DNA of 64,000 nucleotides from an uncultured Thermoplasmata archaeon (GTDB lineage: Archaea > Thermoplasmatota > Thermoplasmata > Lutacidiplasmatales > UBA184), in contig CAVYTM010000001.1 of assembly GCA_963771555.1 (NCBI GenBank), forward strand, positions 633,064 through 697,063. The letters are read 5' to 3'. The first letter of the stretch is position 1. The number at the start of each line of letters is the position of its first letter. The notes under the pieces were generated by a model that made no database searches, had not been told where the DNA came from, and saw only the letters and a list, made by a program, of their open reading frames with translations. Positions 40,636 through 57,827 of the stretch are shown here, piece after piece. Position numbers and translations under genes: made by a program.

Positions 40636-41696
40636 GCGGGGCGCTCCAGGCAGACGGAACGGTTCGGTTCGACGAACCGTCCGAAGCCGGCCAGGTCTAC
40701 GGAAAGGGGTTCTTCGGAACGCTCACGTCGAGCGGCGGACTCTCGCTCGACCGTTACGAGGCGGTCTACCTCTCCGAGATGGGTCGGGTCGACCTTCGGG
40801 GAACGGCCGGTCGAGCCGTCGCCTGGCCGACGGTGTTCCGCCGCGCGGTACGGGCCGACCCCGGCTTCGCGGTTCGATACCTCGTCTACCGGGACCTCCG
40901 GCAGCGAGGATACGTCGTGCGCGCGAGTCCCCCACCGGTCGCGTTCACCGTCCTTCCGCGGGGAGGGGTTCTGCACAAGACCCCATCCCGGTACTGGGTG
41001 GAGGCGATCAGCGAACGGGTCCCCTTCGACCTCGCCCGGCTCTTCGACCTCGCCGAACGGGCCCAGAGCGCGAAGAAGCTGCTTCTGCTCGGCCTCGTGG
41101 ACGAGGAGTCCGACCTCACGTACTACCGGGTCCGCCGGCCCACACCGACCGGCGCGCTCCCCTCGAGGAAGCTCGCGCAACCGGCCGAGGGGTGGCTTTC
41201 CGAGGACCGGGTGACGGTGCACGGCTCCGGGTTGGCCACCGAGCTCGGCAAGGAGCTCGCGTACGGGAGCCGGATCGGCGACCGTCTCGAGCTCAGCCTC
41301 CTCGAGGCCGCGTACCTTTGTTCCGAGGGCCAGCTCACCCTGCGGGATTCGAAGAGCGGTCGCGCGGTCTCGCTCGAACGATTGGAGCGACGCGCGCGCC
41401 GGATGGTTCCGCTCTTCTTCGAGCGGCTGGCCGCGTACCGGGAGTTGCGAGGGCGTTCCCTGGTCGTCAAGACGGGGTTCAAGTACGGCGCCCATTTTCG
41501 GGCGTACCCGCGCAGCCCCGAACACTCGCACGCGCGCTATCTCGTCCAGGCCGCCCCGTCCACGCACGTCGCGTCGTGGCCGGAAGTGGCCGGCGGCGTC
41601 CGGGTGGCCCAGGGGGTCCGCAAAGAGTTCCTGGTCGCCGGAGTGCGCCCGGACGCCCAGGTCAAGTTCCTCTCGCTCGAGAGAGTTCGACCGTAG
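40632..41696 (+). CDS. endA: tRNA-splicing endonuclease, two-domain (duplicated) form
   Basis: Catalytic domain VVKTGFKYGAHFRAYPRSPEHSHARYLV, plus a degenerate N-terminal repeat (YLVYRDLRQRGYVV). 354 aa. GTG start overlaps the pyrE stop. Confidence 0.85.
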   Translation: MSGALQADGTVRFDEPSEAGQVYGKGFFGTLTSSGGLSLDRYEAVYLSEMGRVDLRGTAGRAVAWPTVFRRAVRADPGFAVRYLVYRDLRQRGYVVRASPPPVAFTVLPRGGVLHKTPSRYWVEAISERVPFDLARLFDLAERAQSAKKLLLLGLVDEESDLTYYRVRRPTPTGALPSRKLAQPAEGWLSEDRVTVHGSGLATELGKELAYGSRIGDRLELSLLEAAYLCSEGQLTLRDSKSGRAVSLERLERRARRMVPLFFERLAAYRELRGRSLVVKTGFKYGAHFRAYPRSPEHSHARYLVQAAPSTHVASWPEVAGGVRVAQGVRKEFLVAGVRPDAQVKFLSLERVRP

Positions 41697-42501
41697 TCAG
41701 ACCCGGTCCGTTCGTGGCCCGTGCGCGGGCGGATCCGATGGCGCGGACCCAGCTCCGGAGGTGGTCGGCCGACGGCCTTCGCTCGAGCAGCTCTTCGAGC
41801 GCGGTCCCCACGACCACGCCATCGGCCCCCGTCGCGAGAGCCCGTGAGGCCGACGCACGGTCACGTACCCCGAAGCCGACCAAGACCGGGAGACGGGGGG
41901 CCGCGCGGTGGGCGGTCCGAACGATCGGACGAAGGTCGACCGACGGGTCGCGCACCGCTGTGCCGGTTGTTCCGTAGCGCGAGACGAGATAGAGAAAGCC
42001 CCGACTCGCCCGAGCGACGGCGGCGGTGCGTTCGGGGGGACTCCCCGGAGCGGAAAGGAGAACGAGCGCGAGTCCGGCCGCACGGGCCTCCGTTCGCCAG
42101 GGGCGGGACTCCTCGAGCGAGAGGTCCGGCACGATGAGCCCGGTGGCTCCCGCGCGAGCGAGCTGCCGCATTCCGGCCTTGAGCCCCTCCTGCCAGACCG
42201 GATTCGCGTAGGTCATGACGGCGGTCGGGAGCACCGAGCTCGCGACCCGGCACGCACGAATCAGGTCGCTCCATCCGGTGCCCCGGGCGAGAGCGCGACC
42301 GGCGGCCGCCTCGAGGACGGGGCCGTCCGCGATCGGGTCCGAGAACGGGAATCCGAGCTCGAGCGCGCAGGCTCCGCCGTCGCGCAACGCCCCGACGGTG
42401 CGACGAAGGCTCGAGGACCGGGCCCGGTCGACCATCAGGTACGGAACCACGAGCGGTCGTCCCGAAGTTCTCGCGGTGCGCAGCGCGTCAGCGAGCGGCA
42501 T
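41662..42501 (-). CDS. trpA: tryptophan synthase alpha subunit
   Basis: [20 protein letters not shown] signature; 279 aa. Confidence 0.85.
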
Positions 42502-43645
42502 GCAACACCACGTCGAGGTCCTTATCGCCCCGTCCCGACAACGTCACGACGATCTTCTGGCCCCTCGGACGTCGTCGAGCCTCGCGCACGGCCGCGTAGA
42601 TCGCGTGAGAGGGTTCGAGGGCGGGGAGGATCCCTTCGTCCTGCGCGAGCCAGTGGAACGCTCGAAGCGCTCCGTCGTCGGAAACGCTGATGTAGCGCAC
42701 CCGACCTGAATCCCGCAGATAGGAGTGCTCGGGCCCCACGCCCGCGTAGTCGAGTCCCGCGGAGACGCTCTCGGTCGTGGCGACCTGCCCCTCGCGGTCC
42801 TGGAGGAGGTAGGAGAAAGAGCCATGGAGGATCCCGGGTCGGCCCCGCGTCAACGAGGCGGCGCCCTTCGACCCCGGCCGACCGCCCGCTTCGACGCCGA
42901 GCAGCTCGACCGGAGTGCGGAGGAGAGGACGGAACGTCCCGATCGCGTTCGACCCTCCTCCGACGCAGGCGACGGCGAGGTCGGGTAGGCGGCCGAACAC
43001 CCGACGCGATTGCGTCCGGATCTCGCGACCGATCACGCTCTGGAAGTCCGCGACGATCGAAGGGAACGGATGCGGTCCGACCGCGGAGCCGAGGAGGTAG
43101 TGCGTCGTGCGGACGTTCGCGATCCAGTCACGGAGCGCGGCGTTGATGGCGTCCTTGAGGGTCCGACTGCCGGACCGGACGGCGACCACGTTCGCGCCGA
43201 GCAGGCGCATCCGGTCGACGTTCGGACGCTGGCGTTCCATGTCGACCGCCCCCATATAGACGGTCGTGTCGAGACCCAAGGCCGCGCCGACCATCGCCGT
43301 TGCGACGCCGTGCTGACCCGCTCCGGTCTCGGCGATCAGGCGGGGCTTTCCCATCCGGACCGCGAGCAGGCCTTGGCCGAGCGTATTGTTGAACTTGTGT
43401 GCGCCGCCGTGAACGAGGTCCTCCCGCTTGAGCCAGATCTCGGCGCCTCCGGCGCGGCGGCTCAGATGCCGTGCGAAGTAGAGCGGAGTGGGACGCCCGG
43501 CGAGGGTCTCCGACAGCCGAGCGAGCTCCGCCCGGAACGCAGGGTCGCGCCGGGCGGACCGCCACGTGCTCTCGAGCTCTTCGAGGGCGGGGACCAATGT
43601 TTCGGGGACGTAAGCCCCGCCGTACGCGCCGAACCGTCTAGGCAT
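42488..43645 (-). CDS. trpB: tryptophan synthase beta subunit
   Basis: [13 protein letters not shown] and [13 protein letters not shown]-enzyme motifs. Confidence 0.9.
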
Positions 43646-44285
43646 GCCCCGATTCGAACGCCTCCACGGCCCGGAGGAAAGCCTGCATCCTTACCGGGTC
43701 CTTGACACCGGGAGCGCTCTCGATGCCCGAAGAGACGTCCACACCCCACGGCTGGACGGAACCGAGGGCATCGGCGACGTTCTCGGGGGAAAGACCGCCC
43801 GCGAGCACGAATTTGCGACCCGGGTGAGAATCCACGATGCGCGCGCAGACCTCCCAATCGGGACGCGTTCCGCTGCCGCCCGGGAGCGGTTGGCCCGCCG
43901 CATCGAGGTGGATCCGTGGGTAATCCTCCGCCGGAGGGATCTTCGGGTCCTCGGCCCCCGCGCCGGTCGCGGAAATCGGGACCGAGGGGACCAGATGGTG
44001 GACTTCGAGGAACTCGAGGCCGGGCGGCACCTTACCGTACACTTGGATCCGGTCGACGCCGACCTCGTCGAACAGCTGGTGGACCAGTTCGGCCGTCGGG
44101 TCGACCACCACGGCCCAGGCTTCCGCCTCGGTCGGCACGTGCCCCACGAGGTCGAGCGCCGTCTCGAGCGAGATGTTCCGGGGAGAGGCGGGCACCCCGA
44201 TGACGAAGCCCGCGGCGCCGCCGGACGGCACCTCCTTCACGGTAGCGGGGTCCCGCAACCCACAGAACTTCACGAACGTCCTCAC
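43638..44285 (-). CDS. trpF: phosphoribosylanthranilate isomerase
   Basis: [11 protein letters not shown]-terminus and a TIM-barrel of 215 aa in trp operon context. Confidence 0.8.
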
Positions 44286-45094
44286 GGTGATCCTCCCCGA
44301 GCGGGACGCCGGAGGGTTGAGAGGAACCCTCCGGGGTCGGGAGCACGCGCGACCGCGCTACCCACGAGGATCCCGTCGACGTCCTCCTCCCAGAACCCGC
44401 GGGCGTCGTCGGCGTCCGCGACGCCGCTCAACCCGAGCAGGGGTCGGAGGGCCAACGAGCGAGCTTCGCGGAGGGTCTCCATGGCCGTCGGGCGGTCGAT
44501 CGTGAGGGTGTCGAGATTACGCGTATTGATGCCGTACACGTCCGCCGCCACGTTCGCGGCACGACTTAATTCTGACCGTGAGTGGAATTCGAGCAGAACC
44601 TCGAGTCCTTCGCGGTGCGCGGCGTTCGCGAGGGACGCGAGAGATTCAGCGACACCTCGCTCTCCTTCCAGGCGGGCGATGAGGAGAACCGCGCTCGCGC
44701 CCGTGCGTGCAGCGACCCCGATCTGACGGCGGTCGATGACGAAATCCTTGAACAGGACCGGTCGGGGGGTCGACCGAACCAGCTCGGCCACATCGGTCGG
44801 CGAACCGTCGAAACGCGGCATCGTGGCGAGACAGGAGTAGGCCGACGGCTGGGCCCGGTTGGTGGACTCGAGGAACTGGGAGATCGACCGGGACGGGAGG
44901 ATGGGTTCGGGGTGGCCGGGCGAGACCCGTTTGTATTCCACCACGAGGGCCCCGCGATCGCGGTCGCGTTCCACCGCCGCACGAAACGAGGGCCGAGCTC
45001 CTGGCGTTCGCTCGGGCAGGCCCTCACCGTAGGACGGGGCGGCGATCGATCGGTGGGTCTCCCGAACGATCTCTTCGAGGAATCCCATGCTCAC
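44282..45094 (-). CDS. trpC: indole-3-glycerol-phosphate synthase
   Basis: VVEYKRVSPGHPEPIL, LLIARL, GINTRNLDT motifs. Confidence 0.85.
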   Translation of the reverse strand: MSMGFLEEIVRETHRSIAAPSYGEGLPERTPGARPSFRAAVERDRDRGALVVEYKRVSPGHPEPILPSRSISQFLESTNRAQPSAYSCLATMPRFDGSPTDVAELVRSTPRPVLFKDFVIDRRQIGVAARTGASAVLLIARLEGERGVAESLASLANAAHREGLEVLLEFHSRSELSRAANVAADVYGINTRNLDTLTIDRPTAMETLREARSLALRPLLGLSGVADADDARGFWEEDVDGILVGSAVARAPDPGGFLSTLRRPARGGSP

Positions 45095-46125
45095 CTCGGC
45101 TCCGGGGAGCGGTACGGCGTCGCGAGCTCGGTCATCCGAGTGAGGAGCTGCTCCGCCCGCCCCGAATCGAGTGCCTGCCGGGCCGTTTCGACCCCCTGGG
45201 AAAGGGTGCGGACCGTTCCCGCTACCTCCAGAGCCGCCCCTGCCGTGAGGAGGACCGAACCGCGTCGCGCCCCACCCCCGCCGGCCAAGATGCGGCGGGT
45301 CTCTTCCGCGGCCTCGCGGGGGGGAAGAGCGCCCCAGCTCCCACGTCGGTCCTCCGATGGGAGAAGCTCACCGGCTCTCACCCTTGCCCGGAGGAGCCGG
45401 CGTCCGTTCCAGAGTATCGCGTCCGTATCGCGTTTCGGCGAGAACTCGTCACAGCCCTCGACCGATGTCACCGCCATCGCCCGGCGGCGTCCGAGCTTCG
45501 CCATCGCTTCGGCGGCGCGCACCGCCGTGGGCAGGTCCGCCACACCAACCAACTGGAACGGGATGTTCGCAGGGTTCGAGAGGGGGCCGAGTTGATTGAA
45601 CAAGGTCGGAATGCCCACGGCTCGACGCGCCTCGGCAACGGCCCTCGTTGCCGGGTGGAAGAGCGGGGCGTGGAGGAACGCGAGGCGAAGTTTCCGATAC
45701 GACGCGCGCGCGAACGGGATGCTGTCGACCACCGGCAAACCGAGCGCTTCGAGGAGGTCGCTCGACCCGCAGACTCCGCGGGCGCTCCGGTTTCCGTGCT
45801 TCACGACGGGCACACCCGATGCCGCCACCACGAACGCGCTCACCGTCGAGACGTTGAACGAAGGGGTTCGGGCTCCTCCCGACCCGCAGAGGTCGATCGG
45901 TCGGTCGCGGGGCGGCAACGGGAAGCGCACCGCACGCCGTTGCATCTCGAGAGCGAATTGCGCGAGCTCCCTACCGGTGATCGTTCGGGCCGCGAGGGCG
46001 ACCAGGAGGGCTACCCGCTCGGCGTCGCTCGTCCGGGCCGACAGCAGAGTATCGAAGATCTCGTGCGCATCGTGAGGCGAGAGCGAGGGGGGCCGTAGCA
46101 CGCGGCCCAGCTGCCGCGCGATCAT
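45091..46125 (-). CDS. trpD: anthranilate phosphoribosyltransferase
   Basis: DLCGSGGARTPSFNVSTVSAFVVAASGVPVVKHGNRSARG. Confidence 0.85.
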   Translation of the reverse strand: MIARQLGRVLRPPSLSPHDAHEIFDTLLSARTSDAERVALLVALAARTITGRELAQFALEMQRRAVRFPLPPRDRPIDLCGSGGARTPSFNVSTVSAFVVAASGVPVVKHGNRSARGVCGSSDLLEALGLPVVDSIPFARASYRKLRLAFLHAPLFHPATRAVAEARRAVGIPTLFNQLGPLSNPANIPFQLVGVADLPTAVRAAEAMAKLGRRRAMAVTSVEGCDEFSPKRDTDAILWNGRRLLRARVRAGELLPSEDRRGSWGALPPREAAEETRRILAGGGGARRGSVLLTAGAALEVAGTVRTLSQGVETARQALDSGRAEQLLTRMTELATPYRSPEPR

Positions 46126-46703
46126 CGACGCGCCTCCCGGAGGAAATTACGAAGCAGGGCGGGGCCGCTGCGGGTCAGGTACGACTCGGGATGGAACTGG
46201 ACCGAACTGACCGGACGGGCGCGGTGGCGCAGGGCCATCACGATGCCGTCCTCGCCGCGGGCCGATACTTCGAGTGACGCCGGGACGGAAGCGGGCCGGA
46301 CCATCAGCGAGTGATAGCGCGCCACCATGGTCGGCGACGGCACCCCCCGGAACAGCCCGCGTCCGTCGTGCGTGATGCGGGTCACGTCGCCGTGGACCGG
46401 CTCGGGAGCATGAACGACCGTCCCTCCGTAATGCTCCGCGATGAGCTGGTGGCCGAGACAGACGCCGAGGAACGGTCGCTCTTCGTCCCAACGGCGCAGC
46501 AACGTACGGGAAAGCCCCGTCAGTCGTCGGTCCCCCGGGTGCCCCGGGCCGGGCGAGAGGACCACCGCATCGGGGTCGACGCGAAGCGCCTCGCGAAGCG
46601 GGACCGTCGAGCGAAGGCAACGGACGGTGGCGCCCTCGCTCGAGAGTCCCTGCTCGATGTTGTGAACAAAGGAGTCCTCGTGGTCGATAAGAAGGACCTT
46701 CAT
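46122..46703 (-). CDS. trpG: anthranilate synthase component II (glutamine amidotransferase)
   Basis: MKVLLIDHEDSFVHN, CLGHQ catalytic Cys, FHPES. ATG at 46703 overlaps the trpE stop (ATGA); the first 71 codons of ORF 46122-46916 are Arg-rich. Confidence 0.85.
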   Translation of the reverse strand: MKVLLIDHEDSFVHNIEQGLSSEGATVRCLRSTVPLREALRVDPDAVVLSPGPGHPGDRRLTGLSRTLLRRWDEERPFLGVCLGHQLIAEHYGGTVVHAPEPVHGDVTRITHDGRGLFRGVPSPTMVARYHSLMVRPASVPASLEVSARGEDGIVMALRHRARPVSSVQFHPESYLTRSGPALLRNFLREARR

Positions 46704-47887
46704 CGAGCCCCCCCGACCAGCGTCGCTTCCACCTGGCCCAGCTTTGAGAGGGTCTCTTCGAACTCGCGGGCCGGTCGCGACCGATGCACGATCCCAGCGC
46801 CCGCGGCCGTGTAGAGTCGGGACCCGGAGGCGAATCCGGAACGAATGGCGAGCGCGAAATCGGCCTCGCGATGGGGCCGCAGAAGGGCTACCGTCCCCGC
46901 GTACGGCCCTCTCCACGTCCCTTCTTCCCGGCGCAACAGCTCGGTCGCTCGGATCTTGGGGGCTCCGCTTACGGTTCCCGCGGGGAAGGCCGCCGCCAAC
47001 GCATTCCAGGGACCGACCCCGGGTTTGAGGTGTCCTGCGACCCGGCTCACGAGATGTTCCAGCCGTGCGTACTGTTGACGACGCTCTTCCCAGACCAGCC
47101 GCACGGACCCGGGCCGCGAGACCGAGCCGAGGTCGTTGCGGGCGAGGTCGACCAGCATGCGATGTTCGGCGAGTTCCTTGGGGTCGTCCGCCAGCGGCAG
47201 CCGTCCCTTACGCATCGGCCCCGCGGGGAGGGTCCCGGCGATGGGGTTCACGAACGCGCGGTCGCCGCGGACCTCGACCACCGACTCGGGCGTGGCTCCG
47301 ACGATCTCCCGATCCCCGAACTTGAGGTAGTAGAAGAAGGCGAACCGCTCCGTAGCCCGCAGCCGGCCCGCACGGTGCAAGAGGTCGTCCGGACGCGGCC
47401 ACTCCCGGCGGTGGGCCAGGACGACCTGGAACGCTTCGCCGTCTCGGATCGCCGCCACCAGGTTCCGGACGCCTCGAGAGAACGGGCCGGAAGGCAGAGT
47501 GTCGCGAACGGGCCGGGCGGGCCGAGTTCCCCGAAGAGCCTGGCGCGGAGGAAGCACTGGCCGAGAGACCCGCGGATTCCGAACGAAGGCGAGCTCACCG
47601 AGCGGAAACGGAGAGGCGGGAGGAAATCGAGCGAGGGCCGGCTCGAAAAGTCCGACCGAGTCGAACCCGACGTATCCGATGACCGCCGACCTCGGGGTGG
47701 ACAGAAACCGCTCCGTCCTCCGGGAGAGGTCCGGAAGGTTGCTCCTTTTCGACAGGGTCACGATATCGTCGACCCGGTCGAACGACACCGCTAGGCCCGT
47801 TCGCCCGGGGCCGGCCGCCGCGCGCTCGAAGTACCCGGTGACCTCACGGTTGGGGGCACTCGCCGCAAACTCCTCCCAGGGCGTCAC
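46700..47887 (-). CDS. trpE: anthranilate synthase component I (chorismate-binding)
   Basis: Chorismate-binding C-terminal region MLVDLARNDLGSVSRPGSV, GTVSGAPKIRA, GPYAGTVALL. Confidence 0.85.
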   Translation of the reverse strand: MTPWEEFAASAPNREVTGYFERAAAGPGRTGLAVSFDRVDDIVTLSKRSNLPDLSRRTERFLSTPRSAVIGYVGFDSVGLFEPALARFPPASPFPLGELAFVRNPRVSRPVLPPRQALRGTRPARPVRDTLPSGPFSRGVRNLVAAIRDGEAFQVVLAHRREWPRPDDLLHRAGRLRATERFAFFYYLKFGDREIVGATPESVVEVRGDRAFVNPIAGTLPAGPMRKGRLPLADDPKELAEHRMLVDLARNDLGSVSRPGSVRLVWEERRQQYARLEHLVSRVAGHLKPGVGPWNALAAAFPAGTVSGAPKIRATELLRREEGTWRGPYAGTVALLRPHREADFALAIRSGFASGSRLYTAAGAGIVHRSRPAREFEETLSKLGQVEATLVGGAR

Positions 47888-49206
47888 CGGCCCTCGGCAT
47901 CGTGCACGAGCGCCCGATGGAGTTCCCGAAGGACCTCCGGTCCCCGACCTTCGGGGACGGCGAGCGAGAGGGCACGGGGAGTGGCGCTGAATCCTTCGGC
48001 ACCGGCGAGCGTCGCGGATGGGATGCGGGAGACGTCGTCGAGGACGCCGTCCCCGATCACGGTGACGAGCGCCACGCGGTACGGTCCATCGACCATCGCC
48101 GCGGCCTCTCGGGTCACGGGAGCCAGCGCACGGATGGCGGTGAGCACCTGATTCGGCTCGAGCACGAGGCAGAGCAGCGCGGACGAAGTGTAGAGCTGAA
48201 CCAGGTTGACGCCGGCCGCCGAAAGTCGCTGGGATACCTCGGCCACGATCCCCGGCCGTTGTCGGCCGCCCGGGACCCTCAAGCGAAGGAGTCGGAGATG
48301 TCGCAGCATCGTGAGCGCGCGGTTGTGTCGACCGACGCGCGCGGGCGCGATCGTGGTGACCACGCTCGGGTCGTCGAGCGAGCGCACCTTGAGTACCATC
48401 CCTTCGGCGCGGGCCGGTTCGATCGTGAGCGGATGCAACACCCTCGCACCGAACTGGGCGAGCTCCTCGGCCTCCTCGTAGGAAAGCTCGGGGATCGGCC
48501 GGGCGTTCGGCACCTCGCGCGGGTCGGCCGAGAGGACCGCGACATGACGCTTCACCAGTTCCACACGGGAGGCCCCGAGGAGCGCCCCGATCGCCGAGGC
48601 CGCGTAGTCCGAACCTCCCCGACCCAGCGTCGCCACGCGCCCTTCGAGGCTGCGGCCGAAATATCCGGTCACGACGGGGATTTCTCCTCGGGCGAGGAGC
48701 CGTCCGAGCCCACGGCGCACGGCGACGCGAGAGCGGTCGAACAGGATGCAGGAAGCGCCGTACGTGTTGTCCGTGATGAGGCCGAGATGGTCGGCCTCGA
48801 CCGCGACCGCGGGCACGCCGGCATCGCGGAGTCGGGAGACCAGCCAGTGGACCGCGAGCCGCTCCCCCTGGCTAAGGACACGGTCCGAGAGCGCCGGTTC
48901 GGGGTCGGGAGTCGCTTCCACGAGGAGGAAGAGGCGGGCGAGTCGGTCGAGCTGACGGCGGCCGGCCACCGGGAGCCCTGGATGCGCGCGCCGGACCTCC
49001 TCGAGGATCTCCCGATGTCGGTCCTTCGACCTCGGGTGGGCGAGGGCCTCCGAGAGGAGGTCGGTGACGCCCTCACGTGCGGAGGCGACGACGACCAGGC
49101 GAACCCCCTCCGCACGAAGAGCGCGGACGTCGGAAAGGACTCCGGCGGGGTCGGCGAGGGATGCTCCGCCGAATTTCAGGACGACCGGGGGCATCCGTCG
49201 GGTCAC
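47884..49206 (-). CDS. aspartate kinase (aspartokinase) with C-terminal ACT domains
   Basis: VVLKFGGASLAD; TLGRGGSDYAASAIGALLGA...DPREVPNARPIPELSYEEAEELAQFGARVLHP amino-acid-kinase signature. Confidence 0.85.
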   Translation of the reverse strand: MTRRMPPVVLKFGGASLADPAGVLSDVRALRAEGVRLVVVASAREGVTDLLSEALAHPRSKDRHREILEEVRRAHPGLPVAGRRQLDRLARLFLLVEATPDPEPALSDRVLSQGERLAVHWLVSRLRDAGVPAVAVEADHLGLITDNTYGASCILFDRSRVAVRRGLGRLLARGEIPVVTGYFGRSLEGRVATLGRGGSDYAASAIGALLGASRVELVKRHVAVLSADPREVPNARPIPELSYEEAEELAQFGARVLHPLTIEPARAEGMVLKVRSLDDPSVVTTIAPARVGRHNRALTMLRHLRLLRLRVPGGRQRPGIVAEVSQRLSAAGVNLVQLYTSSALLCLVLEPNQVLTAIRALAPVTREAAAMVDGPYRVALVTVIGDGVLDDVSRIPSATLAGAEGFSATPRALSLAVPEGRGPEVLRELHRALVHDAEGR

Positions 49207-50285
49207 CGAGATACCTCCCGAGCCGGACGTAGGAAACCTTTCGCGAAGGCGAGCTCAGCGTTGAGGACGGAAGCGCCCGCGCCCCCTCGCACCGCGTTGT
49301 GCGTGAGGACGAAGAATCGGAGAAACGGAGGCTCCCAACGGATCCTTCCCACGACCGCGGCCATCCCGCGAGCACGCACGGGGTGCCCCGCCCACCGGTC
49401 CCGCAACGGCTGCGGACGGTCGGCCTGGGGTCGAAGCTCGATCGGCGGAGTCGGTGCGGTGGGCAGGTTCAGGTCGCGCAAGGGGTCGAACGACCTCCAC
49501 GCGCTTTCGATCTCCGCAAGGCGGGGTCGTCGTGTCGATTCCACCGTGACCGCTTCGAGGTGTCCTTCGCGGGTAGCGACCCGGACGCAGTGGGCGAGTA
49601 CCGGTACGGGCGAGGGCACGACGGTGCGAGCCTTCCAGTGGCCCAAGATCCGCGCCGACTCGCGTTGGATCTTCTCCTCCTCTTCCCGGATGAACGGCAC
49701 GACATTGTCCGCGATAGAGAGAGAGGGCACCCCCGGATAGCCCGCCCCGGAAAGAGCCTGATACGTGGCGACATGAACCGCCCGAGGTCCGACCAAATGC
49801 TGGATCGGCGCGAGCGCGAGCACAAGTCCGGTGGTCGAGCAGTTGGGGTTGGTGACGAGGATCCCCGAGCGCGAGGGTCGCTTCGACAGCAGGTCGAGGT
49901 GGTCCGCGTTCACTTCGGGAACCAAGAGGGGAACACGGGGGTCCATCCGGTGGTCCGCCGCGTTAGAGAAGACCGACACTCCGCGTCGGACGAGCTCGGA
50001 CTCGAGCGGGCCGGCAGTTCCCGAGGGCAGCGCCGAAAACGCTACCTGGATCCCGTCCCGCGCGAGCATCGCCGCGGACCGGGCGACGAGCCGTTGCTCC
50101 TCGAGCGAGCCGGGAGGTGCTTCCGCGAGTTGCCAGACGTCGCCCAGCGTTCGACCTTCGGAGCGTTCGGTCGCCACGAGGAGCGGCGAGTCGAACGTGG
50201 GATGCTCGGCGAGCAGCCGCGCAAAGTGCTGTCCGATGTACCCGCTCGCACCCAGGATGGCGCAGGGGATCCGCGGCCCGGTCAC
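49203..50285 (-). CDS. asd: aspartate-semialdehyde dehydrogenase
   Basis: AILGASGYIGQ NAD-binding motif, LSGAGYPG, active-site region. GTG start at 50285 overlaps the aroC TGA (GTGA). Confidence 0.85.
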   Translation of the reverse strand: MTGPRIPCAILGASGYIGQHFARLLAEHPTFDSPLLVATERSEGRTLGDVWQLAEAPPGSLEEQRLVARSAAMLARDGIQVAFSALPSGTAGPLESELVRRGVSVFSNAADHRMDPRVPLLVPEVNADHLDLLSKRPSRSGILVTNPNCSTTGLVLALAPIQHLVGPRAVHVATYQALSGAGYPGVPSLSIADNVVPFIREEEEKIQRESARILGHWKARTVVPSPVPVLAHCVRVATREGHLEAVTVESTRRPRLAEIESAWRSFDPLRDLNLPTAPTPPIELRPQADRPQPLRDRWAGHPVRARGMAAVVGRIRWEPPFLRFFVLTHNAVRGGAGASVLNAELAFAKGFLRPAREVSR

Positions 50286-51367
50286 GGTAGAAAGCCTCCG
50301 CGGAGCCCGAGGTCCGCGAGCGCGATCCCGGCGACCGATTCGAGAACCACCACCGCGCGAGGAACGATGCACGGGTCGTGTCGGCCCGTCACGCCCAGCG
50401 TAGCCGAGGTGCCGTCACCGAGGTTCACCGTACGCTGGCTCCGCGCGATCGACGACGTGGGCTTCACGGCCACCCGGAAGACGAGCGGCATACCCGAGGA
50501 CAGGCCCCCGAGGATCCCTCCCGCATGGTTGGTCTCGGTCCGGACCTTTCCGTTCACCCAGACGAACGGGTCGTTGTGCTCGCTGCCCCGCATCGCCGCC
50601 GCGCGAAAACCGGCGCCGAACTCGATGGCCTTCACCGCGGGTACCGCGAAAGCGATGTGAGCGACCGAACTCTCGATGGAATCAAAAAAGGGTTCTCCGA
50701 GACCGACGGGAATCCCGTCCGCGCGGACCTCCACGACCCCACCGAGGCTGTCGCCGTCCCGCCGGGCGTCCGCGATCGCTTCCTCCATTCGGCGCGCGGC
50801 GTCCGTGTCGGGGCACCCCACCTCGTTCGTTCTCGAGCGCGAGCGCAGATCCTCGAAGTCGTGATCCTCGGACAGGTTCGCATCGATCCCTCCGATCGAG
50901 CGCGTGTACGCGACGACTTCGATCCCGTGGGCCGAGAGAAGCGATTTCGCGATCGACCCGGCGATGACGAGGCCGACGGTCATCCGGCCGGAGAAGATGC
51001 CGCCCCCCGACAGGTCCGCGTCCGGCCCGTAGCGCACCCGCGCCGGATAGTCAGCGTGTCCGGGCCGAGGCGTGTCCTTCATCCGGTCGTACGGAGCCCG
51101 TCGGATGTCCTCGTTCGCGACGTGCGCGCGGAGGACGGAACCGTCGGACCTTCCGTTCGCGAGCCCAGCGTCGATCTGGAGTCGGTCCTCCTCTTGCCGC
51201 CGAGTGGCCAACCGACGACCGACCGGGCGCCGCCGGTCGAGGTCTTCCTGAATCCGGACCGAGTCGACGAGGGTGCCCGCAGGGATTCCCTCGACCTCGA
51301 CGCCGACTTCCGGTCCGTGGCTCGTGCCGAAGAGGGTCACTCGGAACCTCTCGCCGAATCGCATCAT
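50282..51367 (-). CDS. aroC: chorismate synthase
   Basis: FGTSHGPEVG, GRSSARET-like and GGISGG motifs; 361 aa. Confidence 0.85.
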   Translation of the reverse strand: MMRFGERFRVTLFGTSHGPEVGVEVEGIPAGTLVDSVRIQEDLDRRRPVGRRLATRRQEEDRLQIDAGLANGRSDGSVLRAHVANEDIRRAPYDRMKDTPRPGHADYPARVRYGPDADLSGGGIFSGRMTVGLVIAGSIAKSLLSAHGIEVVAYTRSIGGIDANLSEDHDFEDLRSRSRTNEVGCPDTDAARRMEEAIADARRDGDSLGGVVEVRADGIPVGLGEPFFDSIESSVAHIAFAVPAVKAIEFGAGFRAAAMRGSEHNDPFVWVNGKVRTETNHAGGILGGLSSGMPLVFRVAVKPTSSIARSQRTVNLGDGTSATLGVTGRHDPCIVPRAVVVLESVAGIALADLGLRGGFLP

Positions 51368-52638
51368 TTTCCCGACGCTCCTTCCGAAAGACTTCCGAGG
51401 GCGCTCCAGAACGCCGGAAATGACTTCCGAACGCTCTCGCGATCGCCGATGGATGAATTCTTTCGAGCCGCGAGCGCCCCCACGGCCGCGCTCATCACGA
51501 GCCGGTGATCCGAAAGATGGTCCATGTGAAGCGCACGGGGCCGGGGCGTGCCGTGAATGAGGAGGCCCGCCGATGTGATCTCCGCCGTGGCCCCCAGACG
51601 GCGCACGAGGCCGGCGGTGGCGGCGCGACGGTCGGATTCCTTGAGCACGACGTGCTCAGCTCCGCCGAGTCGGCTTGCTCCCGGGATGGTGGCCGCGAGG
51701 ACCCCCGCCAGAGGGTACAGGTCCGGAGCATCCGTTAGGTCAACCCGGAATGGCTTCGGAGCCCCCCCGCTGACGGTTGCGCCGTCGTGGTGCCGGGAAA
51801 CGGTCGCTCCGGCGGCACGCAGGAGGTCGAGCACCGCGAGGTCTGCTTGCGGCCATATTCCCGAGATTCCGGTCACGCGCACCTTTCCCCCGCTGACCGC
51901 GGCCGCGGTCCAGAGGTACGCGGCGGATGAGGCGTCCCCTGGAACCGTGAAGCTCGACCCCTGGGGACGCTGCCGGCCGGGGATGTGGAACCGCCGGCCC
52001 CGCCGCCCGATGTTGATCCCGTGATGTTCCAACAGCCGGAGCGTGGCGTCGAGGTACGGTCGGGAAACGATCGTTCCGGTGAGCTCGAGGACGGAGTCCT
52101 CCTTGAGAGTGGGGAGCGCCAGGAGCAGCGCGGAAGCGAACTGGGATGTCTTCGAAGCGTCCAACGAGACCCGTCCGCCTCGTATGGGACCGCGGATGGT
52201 GACGGGCAGTCCGTGACCGCGCAGGTGCCGCACGTCCGCGCCCAAGATTCGCAACGCGCCGAGAAGCTCCTCGATCGGGCGCTGGGGCAATCGACCCGCA
52301 CCGTCGATCTGGACCGATCGGTCCGTGAGACCGGCGAGCGCGCACACGAAACGCAAGGTCGTTCCGGATTCACCGCACTGCACGCGGATGGCGTTCCGTG
52401 CCGGCCGGCGTAATGGAGCCGCGAGTTGCCAGAGGTTCTTCCGCCGACGGACCGCCGTTCCCAGACGTCCGAGGGCCGACGCGGTGGCGCGCGTGTCGTT
52501 CGAATCGAGAGGTTCCCGGACCCGGAACGTCCGACCGGACAGGTGGCCGACGACGAGGGCTCGATGCGTGTAGCTCTTCGAGGGCGGGGCACGGATCGTC
52601 CCGACGAGGGGTCCCGGTCGAACTACGATCGCGGTCAC
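51364..52638 (-). CDS. aroA: 3-phosphoshikimate 1-carboxyvinyltransferase (EPSP synthase)
   Basis: PPSKSYTHRALVVGHLS, LDSNDTRATASAL, RPIEEL, DHRLVMSAAV. Confidence 0.85.
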   Translation of the reverse strand: MTAIVVRPGPLVGTIRAPPSKSYTHRALVVGHLSGRTFRVREPLDSNDTRATASALGRLGTAVRRRKNLWQLAAPLRRPARNAIRVQCGESGTTLRFVCALAGLTDRSVQIDGAGRLPQRPIEELLGALRILGADVRHLRGHGLPVTIRGPIRGGRVSLDASKTSQFASALLLALPTLKEDSVLELTGTIVSRPYLDATLRLLEHHGINIGRRGRRFHIPGRQRPQGSSFTVPGDASSAAYLWTAAAVSGGKVRVTGISGIWPQADLAVLDLLRAAGATVSRHHDGATVSGGAPKPFRVDLTDAPDLYPLAGVLAATIPGASRLGGAEHVVLKESDRRAATAGLVRRLGATAEITSAGLLIHGTPRPRALHMDHLSDHRLVMSAAVGALAARKNSSIGDRESVRKSFPAFWSALGSLSEGASGK

Positions 52639-53510
52639 GTTTCGTGGGCCTCCATCGAGGACATGCGGGTGAAGGGAACAACGACCTTTCGGGCGTCGTC
52701 GGACGGTAGGACGCGAATCAGGTCGGCGAGCCGGTCCGAAGGTGCGATCGCTGCCAGCGTCGGGCCGAGCCCGCTCACGCCGCTCGCGAGAGCCCCGTGG
52801 CTGCGAAGTCGGTCCCGTATTCCTTCGTACGAGTACCCCATGGCCCGCTCGACGAGCTGCGTGTTGAGCCGCATCGCGGTGAGCCAGTCGCCTTCGGTCG
52901 CGGCGCGCGATACAAGCTCGCCCGCCGCGCGTTCTTCCGAAAAGGCCGACCGCAGGTTCGGGGAAGGAGGATGCGCGTGCGCCGGAACGTAGAGCACGAC
53001 TCCCCAGGTGGGCTCGACCTCCGCCCGGCGGCGAACCTCGCCTCGTGCATTGTCCGTGAGTACGAATCCTGGTTCTAGGCCCGCGAGAGCGTCGTCCAAC
53101 GCTCCCGTCGCACTGACTCCGGCCCGCTTTCCCGCCTCGGCGGAGAGGAGACCGATCTCGAGCGCCGTCGGATCACGCCCGGCCGCCCTCGCGCAGGCGA
53201 GCAAGATCGCCGTGCTCACCGCGCTCGAGCTCTTGAGACCCCGAGCGACCGGGATCTCGGAGCTTAGCGAGAGTTGCACCGAGATGCCGGACTCCGGGAG
53301 GTACTTCTTCAGTCCCGATCGTAAGGATTCCTCCACCACCGAGGTCCGTGCCTCGGGAGGTATGTCCAGGATGGGTGGTCCGTTCGAAGCTGCCCGATTC
53401 ACGGTCACCTGTGCTGCCGCCCGGAGCTCGATTCCGACCGCGCATCCCATCCCGGTGGGCAATGCGTTGACGATCGTTATCGCCCCCGTCGTCCGCGCGC
53501 TCCCGTTCAC
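52635..53510 (-). CDS. shikimate kinase, archaeal GHMP-kinase type
   Basis: GHMP motif IVNALPTGMGCAVG and GHMP C-terminal domain. GTG start at 53510 overlaps the upstream TGA (GTGA). Confidence 0.8.
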   Translation of the reverse strand: MNGSARTTGAITIVNALPTGMGCAVGIELRAAAQVTVNRAASNGPPILDIPPEARTSVVEESLRSGLKKYLPESGISVQLSLSSEIPVARGLKSSSAVSTAILLACARAAGRDPTALEIGLLSAEAGKRAGVSATGALDDALAGLEPGFVLTDNARGEVRRRAEVEPTWGVVLYVPAHAHPPSPNLRSAFSEERAAGELVSRAATEGDWLTAMRLNTQLVERAMGYSYEGIRDRLRSHGALASGVSGLGPTLAAIAPSDRLADLIRVLPSDDARKVVVPFTRMSSMEAHET

Positions 53511-56037: not shown

Positions 56038-56048
56038 GGACCGATCTC

Positions 56049-56801
56049 CTACTCCGGACCGTGCAGGAGGGCCGAGATGCGGAGGGCGAGGGGGCCTACG
56101 GGCTTCCGCTGGAACAGGTTGCGACCGATGCAGATCCCGCCACCTCCCGCGTCGATGCTCGCCTTCACGATCCCTAGGAATTCCTTTTCGTTGTCCAAAC
56201 GGACCCCGCCGCCGATGAGGACAGGAACCGGGGTCGTGCGGCAGAGCTTCGCGAACTCGCGGGCCGACCCGGGATAGCTCGTCTTCACGATGTCCGCGCC
56301 CGTGTCCGCGGCGGCCCGCGCGGCATGTCGCAGTTCGTCGGGGGTTCCGCCGGTGGTCTTCTTGACGTAGGCCATGCAGAGGAGCGGCAGGCCGAGTCGA
56401 CGGCACTGGTCCGCCGCGATGCCGAGGTCGCGGAGCATGTCGGGTTCCTCGGGAATGCCGAAGTTCACCTGCACGCTGAGGAGGTCGGCCCCGAGGCTGA
56501 CCGCTTCCTCCGCCGTGCCGACGAGGACCTTCTGATTCGAGGTCGTCCCGAGGCTCGTGGAGGCCGACACATGGACCCCCAGTAGTGTCGTCGGGGCGAG
56601 TACGGGGGCGAGGGTGCGCACCGCACCTTTCGTGACGATCAATAGGTCCGCACCCGCGTCCTGGAGCTCCTCCGCGAGCGGGGCGAGCTCCTCGAGACCA
56701 TCGATCGGTCCCATCGACACGGGATGGTCGAGGGGCACGGAGAAGAGCTTGCGCTGGGGGTTCGGGAACAGTCGCCGCATCCGTATCGTTCTGCCTTCCA
56801 T
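56049..56801 (-). CDS. 2-amino-3,7-dideoxy-D-threo-hept-6-ulosonate (ADH) synthase, class I aldolase family
   Basis: DhnA-type class I aldolase motifs (SVPLDHPVSMGP, catalytic region IVKTSYPG). Start at internal Met MEGRTIRMRRLF by homology to archaeal ADH synthases. AT-rich patch 56813-56832 lies just upstream. Confidence 0.7.
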   Translation of the reverse strand: MEGRTIRMRRLFPNPQRKLFSVPLDHPVSMGPIDGLEELAPLAEELQDAGADLLIVTKGAVRTLAPVLAPTTLLGVHVSASTSLGTTSNQKVLVGTAEEAVSLGADLLSVQVNFGIPEEPDMLRDLGIAADQCRRLGLPLLCMAYVKKTTGGTPDELRHAARAAADTGADIVKTSYPGSAREFAKLCRTTPVPVLIGGGVRLDNEKEFLGIVKASIDAGGGGICIGRNLFQRKPVGPLALRISALLHGPE

Positions 56802-56812
56802 GGGTCCTACCT

Positions 56813-56832
56813 TCGGTTTGCTTTGCTTTGAG
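56813..56832 (-). promoter_or_regulatory. AT-rich element (minus strand CAAAGCAAAGCAAAC) 12-31 nt upstream of the proposed ADH synthase start; candidate promoter of the aro-trp mega-operon
   Basis: Lowest-GC stretch in the region; contains the direct repeat AAAGC x2. Confidence 0.3.
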
Positions 56833-56999
56833 TGAGGAGCCGAGAAATCGCGATCCGAGAACGTGCGGGGCACGTTGGGACGGCGCCCTCCCGGCGCCTC
56901 CCGGTCACCAGAGCCAGGTCACGGCGACCCGAACCACGTGCGGCCCCGGAAGGGCTTCGAGGGATCGGGCTGCCATCGACCTTGACCACCGGTCCAGTT

Positions 57000-57740: not shown

Positions 57741-57827
57741 CGCCGGTCGCAGACGGGGGGCCGTATTTGGTCGCCGAGGTTCCGTTCTGAACCTCCCGAG
57801 TTATCGCGCCAGGGTCCGCTCGGGCAA

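Follow-up and report, generated by a model that had tools for sequence, protein, structure and literature searches.

The window analysed here is a 64,000-nucleotide stretch of a UBA184-like Thermoplasmata MAG, that is, of an uncultured soil archaeon. Fifteen genes lie on its minus strand between 41662 and 56801, and the order given for them in the preliminary description of this DNA is borne out, with all fifteen ORFs located: ADH synthase, DHQ synthase II (DHQS-II), AroD-AroE, GHMP shikimate kinase, AroA, AroC, Asd, aspartate kinase (Ask) and TrpEGDCFBA. Families were tested by HMM against Pfam and NCBIfam profiles, and every earlier family assignment survived.

56049–56801, minus strand: ADH synthase (2-amino-3,7-dideoxy-D-threo-hept-6-ulosonate synthase), 250 aa; PF01791 (DeoC), 127 bits
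55006–56037, minus strand: 3-dehydroquinate synthase II, 343 aa; PF01959, 244 bits
53507–55009, minus strand: AroD-AroE fusion (DHquinase_I and shikimate dehydrogenase), one protein of 500 aa; Pfam and NCBIfam
52635–53510, minus strand: archaeal GHMP-type shikimate kinase, start GTG 53510 or GTG 53564; TIGR01920, 179 bits (cut-off 127)
51364–52638, minus strand: AroA, EPSP synthase; TIGR01356, 336 bits (cut-off 287)
50282–51367, minus strand: AroC, chorismate synthase; NF003793, 387 bits (cut-off 321)
49203–50285, minus strand: Asd, aspartate-semialdehyde dehydrogenase, archaeal/eukaryal type; asd_EA TIGR00978, 349 bits (cut-off 301)
47884–49206, minus strand: aspartate kinase, 440 aa; TIGR00657, 229 bits (cut-off 209); PF00696
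46700–47887, minus strand: TrpE, anthranilate synthase component I, 395 aa with a short N-terminal region; PF00425, 223 bits
46122–46703, minus strand: TrpG, glutamine amidotransferase; Pfam and NCBIfam
45091–46125, minus strand: TrpD; TIGR01245, 261 bits (cut-off 199)
44282–45094, minus strand: TrpC, start GTG 45094 or ATG 45088; PF00218, 135 bits
43638–44285, minus strand: TrpF; PF00697, 96 bits
42488–43645, minus strand: TrpB; TIGR00263, 557 bits (cut-off 392)
41662–42501, minus strand: TrpA, last gene; TIGR00262, 166 bits (cut-off 102)

The best NCBIfam match of ADH synthase (NF005556, 233 bits) falls below its cut-off of 241. The protein is nearest to M. jannaschii MJ0400 (E 5e-49; LsrF 2e-22, class I FBP aldolase 5e-20) and retains the DIVKTSY lysine motif. 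DHQS-II, at 220 bits under the curated cut-off of its NCBIfam model, keeps 17/17 columns that are invariant across 98 diverse family members. The AroD-AroE fusion is also present in Thermoplasmata and Methanomassiliicoccales loci. Aspartate kinase shows a weak ACT-domain match (ACT_7); Thermoplasmata MAGs and metagenomes contain over 120 orthologues of it, each at least 77% identical. TrpE, whose best NCBIfam match (TrpE-arch, 248 bits) is below the cut-off of 512, is assigned partly from context. A T6 run is located inside aroC. At the far end of the array, the 3′ end of TrpA overlaps the convergent tRNA-splicing endonuclease gene endA (40632–41696, plus strand; Pfam) by 35 nt.

The 5′ boundary earlier drawn at 56873 reflects the longest ORF only and is off by 72 nt. 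Profile alignments, the gene calls of the source contig and relatives all point to ATG 56801 as the start codon of ADH synthase; profile position 4 aligns at residue 26, and GTG 56873 falls within a conserved leader RNA hairpin. As described before, 13 of the 14 junctions can overlap, but two of these hinge on start-codon choice, with the gene caller's starts giving a 58-nt overlap at aroK and a 2-nt gap at trpC. Under overlap-favouring starts the sole gap is the 11 nt between ADH synthase and DHQS-II; eleven junctions carry 4-nt [AG]TGA overlaps, and trpF/trpB and trpB/trpA overlap by 8 and 14 nt. Other same-strand neighbours in the window also overlap briefly (31735–33006/32999–34318 and 34312–35283/35280–36047/36037–37851). 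Hence, the overlaps are a mark of genome compactness rather than a peculiarity of the operon. The feature beyond chance is the whole gene order, kept in about 20 species-level genomes as well as in metagenome contigs.

The operon is best read as one tightly overlapping biosynthetic unit of fifteen enzymes leading from aspartate to tryptophan. Ask and Asd would form aspartate semialdehyde (ASA), which ADH synthase and DHQS-II would condense with a keto-sugar phosphate made elsewhere and cyclise to 3-dehydroquinate (DHQ); AroD-E, the GHMP shikimate kinase, AroA and AroC would then lead to chorismate, and TrpEGDCFBA to tryptophan. The idea that asd and ask act as an ASA supply line gains independent support from recurrence of the linkage: at least five archaeal lineages, each with its own gene order, have asd, often together with ask, linked to ADH synthase/DHQS-II. 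Caldarchaeales, Jordarchaeia and a Thermoproteota MAG have the order ask-asd-ADHS-DHQS2, and Methanomassiliicoccales have aroC, CM-TyrA, asd and HcyBio near ADHS/DHQS-II. The scan of window ORFs found neither chorismate mutase nor prephenate enzymes, nor any gene for DKFP formation, and the operon contains neither DAHP synthase nor type-I DHQ synthase.

The preliminary description missed the 200-nt spacer upstream of the operon (56802–57006), which includes a putative regulatory leader with the following features.

57000–57006, minus strand: TATA-like box TAAATAG, predicted promoter, overlapping the end of the upstream gene
56905–56976, minus strand: leader ORF of 23 codons plus TGA, MAARSLEALPGPHVVRVAVTWLW, predicted start of a leaderless mRNA
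56908–56916, minus strand: putative regulatory codons TGG-CTC-TGG (Trp21-Leu22-Trp23), with TGA directly after at 56905–56907
56877–56902, minus strand: putative local hairpin P1 (seg1/seg2), near-invariant GGGAGGCGCC-GGGAG-GGCGCCGTCCC, beginning 2 nt past the leader stop
56834–56900, minus strand: long alternative hairpin B, from MFE fold and covariation
56860–56876, minus strand: small variable hairpin P2, AACGTGC-CCC-GCACGTT, enclosed by B
56805–56813, minus strand: Shine-Dalgarno-like GAAGGTAGG upstream of the ADH synthase ATG

The TAAATAG box covers the final Lys codon and TAG stop of an upstream CADD/PqqC-like gene, and TAAATA occurs once in the 64-kb window, counting both strands. Two loci (L019 and L020) keep the box as TAAATA/TTAATA though no CADD-like gene lies upstream. 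The distance from the start of the TATA-like hexamer to the leader ATG is 29–30 nt in 79/88 distinct leaders (28–31 nt in 86/88). When the ATG is placed by this spacing alone, it is in frame with the stop in 89/89 distinct leaders; none of them has an in-frame stop, whereas the other two frames are interrupted in 24 and 3 sequences. Leader length is 23 codons in 71/87 distinct peptides, and the variants (19–25) all differ by whole codons. Across the 89 distinct versions the body of the peptide is variable and the W-x-W-TGA end constant; the same end is invariant in 18/18 loci found independently, via DHQS-II. The middle codon encodes Leu, Pro or Ser in 70, 10 and 7 of 87 peptides, and Trp is rare elsewhere in the leaders (5/1736 residues).

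A Rfam search of the leader element returned no matching family. Our covariance model finds one copy per locus, always 95–110 nt upstream of ADH synthase, with no second copy in the window and none in 62 other DHQS-II loci; in metagenome contigs with downstream sequence the element precedes ADH synthase in 84/84. Wherever sequence extends past ask, leader-bearing loci run on into trpE (trpE-G-D after ask). In five loci (L018, L023, L024, L026 and L027) trpE does not follow, and the leader is absent. The closest relative without the asd-to-trpA block, L018 (DHQS-II identity 76%), is one of these: its aroC is directly followed by endA, and its upstream spacer is only 61 nt. A Trp-x-Trp-stop ORF thus heads the operon only where trp genes are in it, which supports the earlier proposal that the unit is dedicated to tryptophan. 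If these are the sole copies, a Trp-only leader over the common aro genes and ask/asd would be physiologically awkward.

Two mutually alternative folds are predicted after the ORF. The putative P1 stem pairs in 98% of cells of the alignment (86 distinct leaders) and is too invariant to reveal covariation. In B, a distal strand rich in pyrimidines is the partner of both the purine-rich seg1 and the loop of P1, and seg3 that of seg2. B (–40.6 kcal/mol, z –2.0) is the MFE fold in 75/84 distinct leaders. Its pairing holds in 83% of cells versus 47–60% in slid controls, a value inflated by fitting the alignment to the model structure, and double-change cells number 143 versus 44 ± 6.6 in shuffles (0/500 reach the observed value). 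Positions –14 to –4 have a predicted unpaired probability of 0.60 in fold B, 0.36 when P1 is forced and 0.41–0.46 when a ribosome occupies W23 or the stop; this is a modest predicted effect of folding on Shine-Dalgarno accessibility. At –8.1 kcal/mol, the anti-SD:SD duplex does not outdo composition-matched shuffles (–7.0 kcal/mol, z –0.5). No oligo-U tract lies 3′ of the hairpin, and classical intrinsic termination is therefore unlikely.

We suggest, with a probability of roughly 0.6, that the whole operon is controlled by a leader-peptide switch with Trp codons, carried on an mRNA that is probably leaderless. The single TATA box at 57000–57006 would drive the entire unit, with the mRNA 5′ end probably at, or a few nucleotides from, the leader ATG. 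Seg1, the purine-rich strand of a very stable GC-rich stem, could choose between its local partner (P1) and the distal pyrimidine-rich strand (B). A ribosome awaiting Trp-tRNA at the first Trp codon would end just short of seg1, so that B could stand; predicted access to the ribosome-binding site of ADH synthase is greatest in this fold. Once on Trp23 or the leader stop, the ribosome would have to unwind and cover seg1, freeing the pyrimidine strand and lowering downstream expression. The opposite polarity can also be argued from co-transcriptional folding. The output step may be translation initiation, factor-dependent termination or mRNA stability.

It is unlikely that the fifteen genes instead form several regulatory units, with internal promoters driving sub-operons such as asd-ask and trpE-A, and with ask/asd serving general aspartate-family amino-acid synthesis and placed here by history. 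The 3′ part is indeed modular in relatives: L018 has aro genes only, L026 and L027 have aro, asd and ask, L023 and L024 add trpF, and others add the entire trp block. In Methanomassiliicoccales, asd also lies next to genes for homocysteine synthesis, which likewise consumes ASA, and the T6 run in aroC fits such a division. Archaeal operons are known to contain internal promoters (Koide et al. 2009, as cited in PMC4162585). However, no TAAATA-like box occurs within the operon's 15 kb, the junctions leave no intergenic space, the asd/ask-ADHS/DHQS-II linkage recurs in several phyla in differing orders, and L018 has lost the leader and the trp block together.

Somewhat less probable still is that the upstream element is a protein or ligand site in RNA or DNA, with the operon as annotated and the W-x-W ORF incidental; such a site might be a riboswitch-like fold or, at the GGCGCC-N5-GGCGCC repeat, the operator of a repressor. 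The 26-nt GGGAGGCGCCGGGAGGGCGCCGTCCC is more invariant than pairing alone demands, a small hairpin (P0) can form around the Trp codons, so that RNA structure could account for their conservation, and known archaeal trp regulation, a precedent for such a site, relies on the DNA-binding proteins TrpY and Tar (PMC6737238). This reading leaves unaccounted the fixed, always in-frame ATG, the whole-codon indels, the stops confined to the other frames, and the exchange of Leu, Pro and Ser at the middle codon while both TGG and TGA persist; moreover, the covariation favours an RNA helix over a DNA operator.

We also doubt that the leader is a TnaC-like arrest peptide, in which free tryptophan, bound within the exit tunnel, would prevent release at UGA, park the ribosome on seg1 and turn the operon off when Trp is abundant. 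The Trp residues do sit at the extreme C-terminus beside an invariant UGA, length is nearly constant (23 residues), positions –8 (Arg), –6 (Ala/Val) and –4 (Thr/Ala) show some conservation, and a ribosome at the stop would cover seg1 and lower the predicted SD accessibility, the polarity expected. Yet the body of the peptide is highly variable, conservation at –6 and –4 coincides with P0 stem nucleotides, and two Trp codons are more simply explained by sensing of hungry codons. Finally, it is very improbable that the first two genes encode, in place of ADH synthase and DHQS-II, a BagB/BagC pair of the GriI/GriH type making 3-amino-4-hydroxybenzoate from ASA and DHAP: their products score under the curated ADHS and DHQS-II cut-offs and also match BagB/FevI (179 bits) and BagC/FevH (118 bits) models, but the ADHS and DHQS-II models outscore these (233 and 220 bits), the Bag cut-offs (500 and 750) are far above the scores obtained, MJ0400 leads the solved homologues by a wide margin, the next five genes require DHQ as substrate, and the operon is devoid of DAHP synthase and type-I DHQ synthase.

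The leader also bears no likeness to TnaC's conserved Trp/Asp/Pro pattern, a further point against the arrest-peptide reading. Together, the leader and hairpin look like a bacterial-style tryptophan attenuator, of which no archaeal example has yet been documented.

Family profiles from Pfam and NCBIfam, run over the ORFs of 41662-56873, bear out the preliminary description of fifteen consecutive minus-strand genes and assign all fifteen to the families and the order that it proposed:

First operon gene, minus strand: DeoC-family aldolase, with ADH synthase (ADHS) as the best model (Pfam, NCBIfam)
Second operon gene, minus strand: DHQ synthase II (DHQS-II) (Pfam, NCBIfam)
Third operon gene, minus strand: type-I dehydroquinase/shikimate dehydrogenase fusion (aroDE), 500 aa (Pfam, NCBIfam)
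Fourth operon gene, minus strand: archaeal GHMP shikimate kinase (aroK) (Pfam, NCBIfam)
Operon genes 5-8, minus strand: AroA, AroC, archaeal-type Asd and aspartate kinase (ask) (Pfam, NCBIfam)
Operon genes 9-15, minus strand: TrpE, G, D, C, F, B, A (Pfam, NCBIfam)

The junctions are likewise as claimed. Thirteen of the 14 show start/stop overlap (eleven of 4 nt, [AG]TGA, and two longer ones of 8 and 14 nt); the single 11-nt gap sits between ADHS and DHQS-II, and DHQS-II overlaps the downstream aroD-aroE fusion by 4 nt. The start codons used here match the points at which the family profiles begin aligning, and aroK and trpC have more than one possible start codon. Short overlaps are frequent among other same-strand neighbours in the window. 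Hence, they are a sign of a compact genome and not a peculiarity of this operon. Of the proposed extent, the gene array stands and the ADHS start probably does not: the GTG at 56873 falls within a small leader hairpin, and the ATG at 56801 is the most likely start. Longest-ORF calls can swallow regulatory leaders in this way, the 5' 72 nt of the longest 'ADH synthase' ORF being leader RNA. Chorismate mutase and prephenate enzymes are missing from the window ORFs scanned, as had been stated for the array, and neither pheA/tyrA nor DKFP-forming genes nor a source of the sugar co-substrate was found among them.

TrpE (46700-47887, minus strand) is short, with 395 aa; its C-terminal 250 residues alone align to TrpE/PabB profiles, and its score is far under every equivalog cut-off. 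The N-terminal part is poorly conserved and may still have a Trp feedback site. The longest T-run noted in the operon is a T6 on the coding strand within aroC (50680-50690, minus strand, CTTTTTTGATT), in a context of 69% G+C. Oligo-T tracts are archaeal termination signals, and partial internal termination at this T6 is conceivable. A scan of 41-58 kb with sigma-70 promoter and hairpin/U-tract terminator models, which are uninformative for an archaeon, returned shuffle-level counts and was set aside.

Profile and alignment evidence supports the first two genes as the putative entry pair of the pathway. ADHS matches NF005556 best (233.3 bits, cut-off 241) and TIGR01949 with 214.6 bits (cut-off 299.45), and other families score lower (BagB 179 bits, archaeal FBP aldolase 128 bits). 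Its closest solved relative is MJ0400 of M. jannaschii (2qjg_A, E 5e-49 over residues 3-247), against 2e-22 for LsrF and 5e-20 for class I FBP aldolase. The DIVKTSY motif, whose lysine presumably forms the Schiff base, aligns identically with MJ0400. The transaldol-type activity on aspartate semialdehyde (ASA) and DKFP was not demonstrable even in Halobacterium (PMC4162585). DHQS-II reaches 244 bits against PF01959 (gathering score 22.2) and carries 17 of the 17 columns that are invariant across a 98-member alignment taken from a search of 1.8 billion cluster representatives; its score against the NCBIfam equivalog is 220 bits, with a cut-off of 392. Since both enzymes lie under the NCBIfam curated cut-offs, they appear to be divergent members of their families. 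An identity of the two genes as GriI/GriH (3,4-AHBA) was rejected, as the scores are lower and such enzymes would be senseless upstream of five DHQ-dependent steps.

We scanned one genome per species with a 30-sequence DHQS-II alignment and mapped the window proteins onto 80 loci, in most of which ADHS and DHQS-II are adjacent. The full order CADD-like-ADHS-DHQS2-aroDE-aroK-aroA-aroC-asd-ask-trpE-G-D (the CADD-like gene being the operon's upstream neighbour, DHQS2 being DHQS-II) is found in ~20 Thermoplasmata species, at DHQS-II identities down to 50%. The aspartate kinase sequence recurs identically on a 92-kb contig of the Thermoplasmata MAG GCA_049585555.1 and in other assemblies, and more than 120 orthologues with at least 77% identity come from Thermoplasmata MAGs and soil/peat metagenomes. 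Across the 80 loci, asd, often together with ask, also adjoins ADHS/DHQS-II in other lineages, in differing orders. Caldarchaeales, Jordarchaeia and a Thermoproteota MAG show ask-asd-ADHS-DHQS2 or asd-ADHS-DHQS2. In Methanomassiliicoccales, a fusion of chorismate mutase and TyrA comes after aroC; next are asd and the genes for ASA-dependent homocysteine synthesis (PF01837; a NIL/ferredoxin protein), with ask further on. Neither asd nor ask was found near ADHS/DHQS-II in the Methanobacterium, Methanobrevibacter, Methanoperedens and Haloferax loci surveyed; the Haloferax loci L077 and L080 have the trpCBA-ADHS arrangement known from PMC4162585. Recurrent linkage in rearranged order is classical evidence of functional coupling, and its occurrence in several archaeal phyla supports the earlier proposal that ask and asd form an ASA supply line for the entry route. 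It is also independent neighbourhood evidence for White's ASA-precursor proposal. The searched literature holds no precedent for ask/asd embedded in aro clusters, although absence there is not proof. The operon brings together ask and asd as precursor supply, the two non-canonical entry enzymes, the steps of the common pathway and the complete trp branch, making it the fullest genomic account to date of the ASA-dependent route to aromatics.

The survey yielded further observations on the surroundings of DHQS-II. In the Methanomassiliicoccales loci L028, L032, L034, L039, L064 and L083 (~9000-20000), ADHS-DHQS2-aroDE-aroK-aroA-aroC is followed by a chorismate mutase/prephenate dehydrogenase fusion and asd. 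The next genes were scanned in L028 and L064 and start with HcyBio (PF01837), beyond which L064 has a NIL/4Fe-4S protein and then ask; asd is placed between two ASA consumers, aromatic entry and homocysteine synthesis. DHQS-II, sometimes with ADHS, was also met on contigs labelled as bacterial (L049, L051, L062, L063, L072, L082 and similar; Syntrophobacteraceae, Leptospirales, Armatimonadota, 'Aquifex'), so either the ASA entry route is seemingly not confined to archaea or these bins are mislabelled. In a second assembly of the window organism (L001; ENA ERZ25039509 contig_99947), DHQS-II is split into ORFs of 267 and 87 aa, shikimate kinase is truncated, the trpA call is absent and endA is extended; these breaks are probably indel errors of assembly, not biology.

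Other genes of the window touch on the biology of its host. Isocitrate lyase and malate synthase of the glyoxylate shunt (60300-63358, minus strand; 57586-60294, plus strand) adjoin a family III CoA-transferase and an acyl-CoA dehydrogenase, which suggests that this Thermoplasmata lineage grows on acetate or fatty acids. Positions 750-3830 (plus strand) encode a thermopsin-family protease of 1026 aa that has PKD repeats. Thermopsin-type acid proteases are characteristic of acidophilic archaea, and its presence would fit the peat/soil origin of related contigs. A peptidase M3 gene (oligoendopeptidase F-like; 11689-13802, plus strand) appears broken into a pair of ORFs, 11689-13059 and 12750-13802, which overlap and cover successive stretches of the Pfam profile; this points to a frameshift, either in a pseudogene or by assembly error. 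Downstream of the operon lie a UbiA-family prenyltransferase, GGGP synthase (PcrB) and CDP-archaeol synthase (CarS) (34312-36047 and 39506-40084, plus strand). The endA-PRTase-CarS-peptidase neighbourhood is common to the window and to L018, a locus of Thermoplasmata archaeon UBA61.

Directly upstream of the operon, at 57000-57740 (minus strand), is the CADD-like gene, which codes for a 246-aa haem-oxygenase-like protein (PF14518/TENA). With 67-87% identity, it holds this position in most related Thermoplasmata genome loci and in 78 of 84 metagenome contigs with ADHS downstream. Its match to TIGR04305 'CADD folate-related' is weak (76 bits, cut-off 200), and among solved proteins it is closest to '4-aminobenzoate synthase' (9pj4, E 4e-11; 8va9), PqqC and Chlamydia CT610. 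Possibly it is a pABA synthase of the self-sacrificing kind, encoded next to the genes for chorismate synthesis.

The spacer between the stop of this CADD/PqqC-like gene (57000) and the ADHS ATG (56801) is ~200 nt long, a length that is conserved, and contains the following elements:

57006-57000, minus strand: TAAATAG, with the sole TAAATA in the 64-kb window
ATG at 56976, minus strand, 30 nt past the start of TAAATAG: leader ORF, MAARSLEALPGPHVVRVAVTWLW and stop
From 2 nt past the leader TGA, minus strand: GGGAGGCGCC-GGGAG-GGCGCCGTCCC, conserved spacer sequence
After GGCGCCGTCCC, minus strand, in this order: small hairpin, pyrimidine-rich stretch, A-rich spacer, Shine-Dalgarno (SD) of ADHS

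We found the W-x-W-TGA ending of the leader ORF in 18 of 18 loci that had been recovered through DHQS-II, independently of the leader, while the peptide body is unconserved. A metagenome pattern scan added 88 further contigs, giving a total of 89 distinct leaders. A TATA-like hexamer starts 29-30 nt upstream of the ATG in 79 of 88 leaders. When the ATG is set by TATA spacing alone, the distance from ATG to TGA is a multiple of three in 89/89, with no in-frame stops, versus stops in 24 and 3 sequences in the other two frames. The peptide has 23 residues in 71 of 87 distinct cases, and all 16 length variants differ by whole codons. The codon between both TGGs specifies Leu (70), Pro (10) or Ser (7) in the 87 peptides, and Trp makes up 5 of 1736 residues elsewhere. 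The TATA centre lies ~27 nt before the ATG, a distance in keeping with the usual spacing from TATA to start in archaea; given this promoter architecture, the ORF is predicted to open a leaderless mRNA as its first cistron. Judged by sequence, the leader ORF qualifies as a real, Trp-specific feature, a short ORF with end-product codons. Trp-rich short ORFs upstream of aro, trp or ask genes in other lineages were out-of-frame ORFs inside coding regions alone.

The leader co-occurs with the trp genes. In a covariance-model search each of the 18 loci has exactly one copy of the leader, with no second copy elsewhere in the window and none in the remaining 62 loci. Where metagenome contigs include downstream sequence, the leader lies 95-110 nt upstream of ADHS in all 84. 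Leader-bearing loci that reach past ask run into trpE-G-D without exception. Among related leader-less loci, L026 and L027 end at ask, and in L023 (18208-18867) and L024 (~17947) asd-ask is followed by a lone trpF-like (PRA-isomerase-like) gene, with no other trp genes within the remaining 2-3 kb. L018, the closest relative by DHQS-II identity (76%), runs at 8443-21029 from the CADD-like gene through ADHS to aroC and then straight into endA-CarS-M20 peptidase, the genes that follow trpA in the window. Its CADD-ADHS spacer is 61 nt, and both the Trp leader and the asd-ask-trpEGDCFBA block are missing. The leader and the asd-to-trpA block are thus absent together, and L018 is a natural deletion or insertion variant.

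In single-sequence folds, the purine-rich strand after the stop (seg1 with the loop of the local hairpin P1) has two pairing options. It can pair locally with GGCGCCGTCCC to form P1 (seg1/seg2), or with the distal pyrimidine-rich strand (seg4) to form a long hairpin, B, whose interrupted stem of 24 bp surrounds a small variable hairpin as well as seg2:seg3. Of 84 distinct leaders, 75 have B as their minimum-energy fold. In a covariance-model alignment of 86 distinct sequences, B pairs in 83% of cells, versus 47-60% with slid partners, and both-side changes occur in 143 cells versus 44 +/- 6.6 in shuffles (0/500). The covarying pairs are located in the long stem and in the small hairpin, and the covariation is also seen on an unfitted alignment. 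P1 fits 98% of cells yet does not vary, hence the covariation test is uninformative for it and neither backs nor contradicts P1. RNAalifold on plain MAFFT alignments gave P0 (a small hairpin at the Trp codons), P1 and a short 4-bp seg3-seg4 helix, and hardly any covariation, since these alignments place the distal strand badly; the long hairpin was recovered solely via per-sequence folds and model-based alignment. Rfam 15 has no match to the spacer, the two hits (E 5.9 and 9.1) being chance-level and on the opposite strand. Mean energies are -53.8 kcal/mol for B, -47.1 with P1 forced and -42.5 with a ribosome on the stop, and in these models the leader RNA is plausibly bistable.

From the first base of W21, the first leader Trp codon, it is 14 nt to the stem's first paired base; from that of W23, the second, it is 8 nt, and from that of the stop 5 nt. 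Reasoning from bacterial ribosome dimensions, a ribosome with W21 in the A site would end just short of the stem, and one with W23 or the stop in the A site would unwind it and cover 5-8 nt of seg1. Under shortage of Trp-tRNA, ribosomes would be parked at the first Trp codon, B would persist and the operon would be expressed; with ample Trp, they would enter seg1, the pyrimidine strand would be freed and downstream expression would drop. As the simplest model we thus propose a Trp-tRNA-responsive switch. The predicted unpaired probability of the SD is 0.60 in B, 0.41-0.46 with seg1 covered and 0.36 with P1 forced. In 96% of leaders B gives a higher value than forced P1, and the pattern across states holds in 82-96%. 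However, the anti-SD:SD duplex is weak against composition-matched shuffles (z -0.5), so SD sequestration is proposed tentatively.

Overall, we suggest, with a probability of roughly 0.55, that this is the first archaeal case of ribosome-mediated leader-peptide amino-acid sensing, in which the translation status of a leaderless 23-codon W-x-W-stop ORF reprograms a bistable RNA and so sets how strongly the 15-gene aspartate-to-tryptophan operon is expressed. No oligo-U follows the leader helices, as an intrinsic terminator would have; if the leader is an attenuator, it would therefore be of the translational or factor-dependent type, and its output might instead be factor-dependent termination or mRNA stability. 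On kinetic arguments, the polarity of the switch could also invert. A TnaC-like arrest by free Trp at the UGA would give the same polarity as the simplest model, but TnaC has a conserved Trp/Asp/Pro pattern before its stop, and here the C-terminal W-x-W alone is invariant in an otherwise variable body, with no conserved Asp or Pro at the tabulated C-terminal positions of the leader peptides.

If Trp-tRNA-responsive sensing by the leader is true, an attenuation logic considered characteristic of Bacteria also arose, or persisted, with the archaeal machinery for transcription and translation. The leader bears on whether coupled transcription and translation in archaea is used for amino-acid sensing, and on leaderless mRNAs with regulatory first cistrons; its Trp codons and covarying helix make a concrete, mutable test case with ~90 natural variants. 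If ask/asd and the aro genes here are the sole genomic copies, a Trp-only leader would also gate precursors of Thr, Met, Lys, Phe and Tyr, which would speak for a modest dynamic range or extra promoters.

As a gene array, the operon recalls the B. subtilis aromatic supraoperon (aroF-aroB-aroH-trpEDCFBA-hisC-tyrA-aroE), which likewise combines aro genes and the complete trp pathway in a single long run of co-directional genes. There, Trp control by TRAP is confined to the internal trpE leader, and tyrA and hisC are part of the array; here, a Trp-specific leader heads the array, entry is ASA-dependent, ask and asd are present and Phe/Tyr genes are absent. In M. jannaschii the genes of the ASA/DKFP route are scattered, whereas here the entry genes are joined into a supply-to-product operon, whose sugar co-substrate may be DKFP or fructose-1,6-bisphosphate. 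Both putative entry enzymes are shared with that route, as MJ0400 and MJ1249 (White 2004, as cited in PMC4162585 and PMC9012536). The haloarchaeal trpCBA-OE1472F operon also combines ADHS with trp genes in an archaeal host, where they are co-transcribed, with induction in the absence of aromatic amino acids (Gulko et al. 2014, PMC4162585), but it has four genes, with DHQS-II separate, ask/asd absent and no leader ORF described.

As to regulation, the archaeal Trp regulators TrpY (Methanothermobacter) and Tar/TK0271 (Thermococcus) are DNA-binding proteins at promoters, and little is known beyond TrpY (PMC6737238). Trp-responsive control of an archaeal trp operon is proposed here too, by way of a leader, predicted to be transcribed, that contains an ORF as well as a covarying RNA helix. 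Full-text literature searches returned no description of archaeal leader-peptide attenuation, absence there not being proof. By analogy, the leader resembles bacterial leader-peptide attenuators. Like E. coli trpL and the actinobacterial trp leaders, it has a short ORF that lies upstream of Trp-biosynthesis genes and has Trp codons close to its 3' end, predicted mutually exclusive pairings that start where the ribosome stops, and end-product specificity. Unlike them, it has an archaeal host and a predicted leaderless mRNA. In E. coli trpL a tandem WW lies inside the ORF; here W-x-W directly precedes the stop, and the regulated unit is not trpE-first but starts with the aro entry enzymes and includes ask/asd. 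Moreover, it lacks the hairpin-plus-oligo-U terminator of trpL and thus fails the classical definition. On this comparison its nearest analogue is the mycobacterial leaderless poly-Cys short-ORF attenuator, a cysteine-sensing and experimentally tested system that acts on the following gene's ribosome-binding site, where a stalled ribosome blocks the sequestering structure (Canestrari et al., bioRxiv 10.1101/834739). Both have a leaderless short ORF, here a predicted one, as the opening cistron of a biosynthetic operon, but the present case is archaeal, Trp-specific and a sequence-based prediction, and its predicted open state needs a ribosome that stops short of the hairpin.
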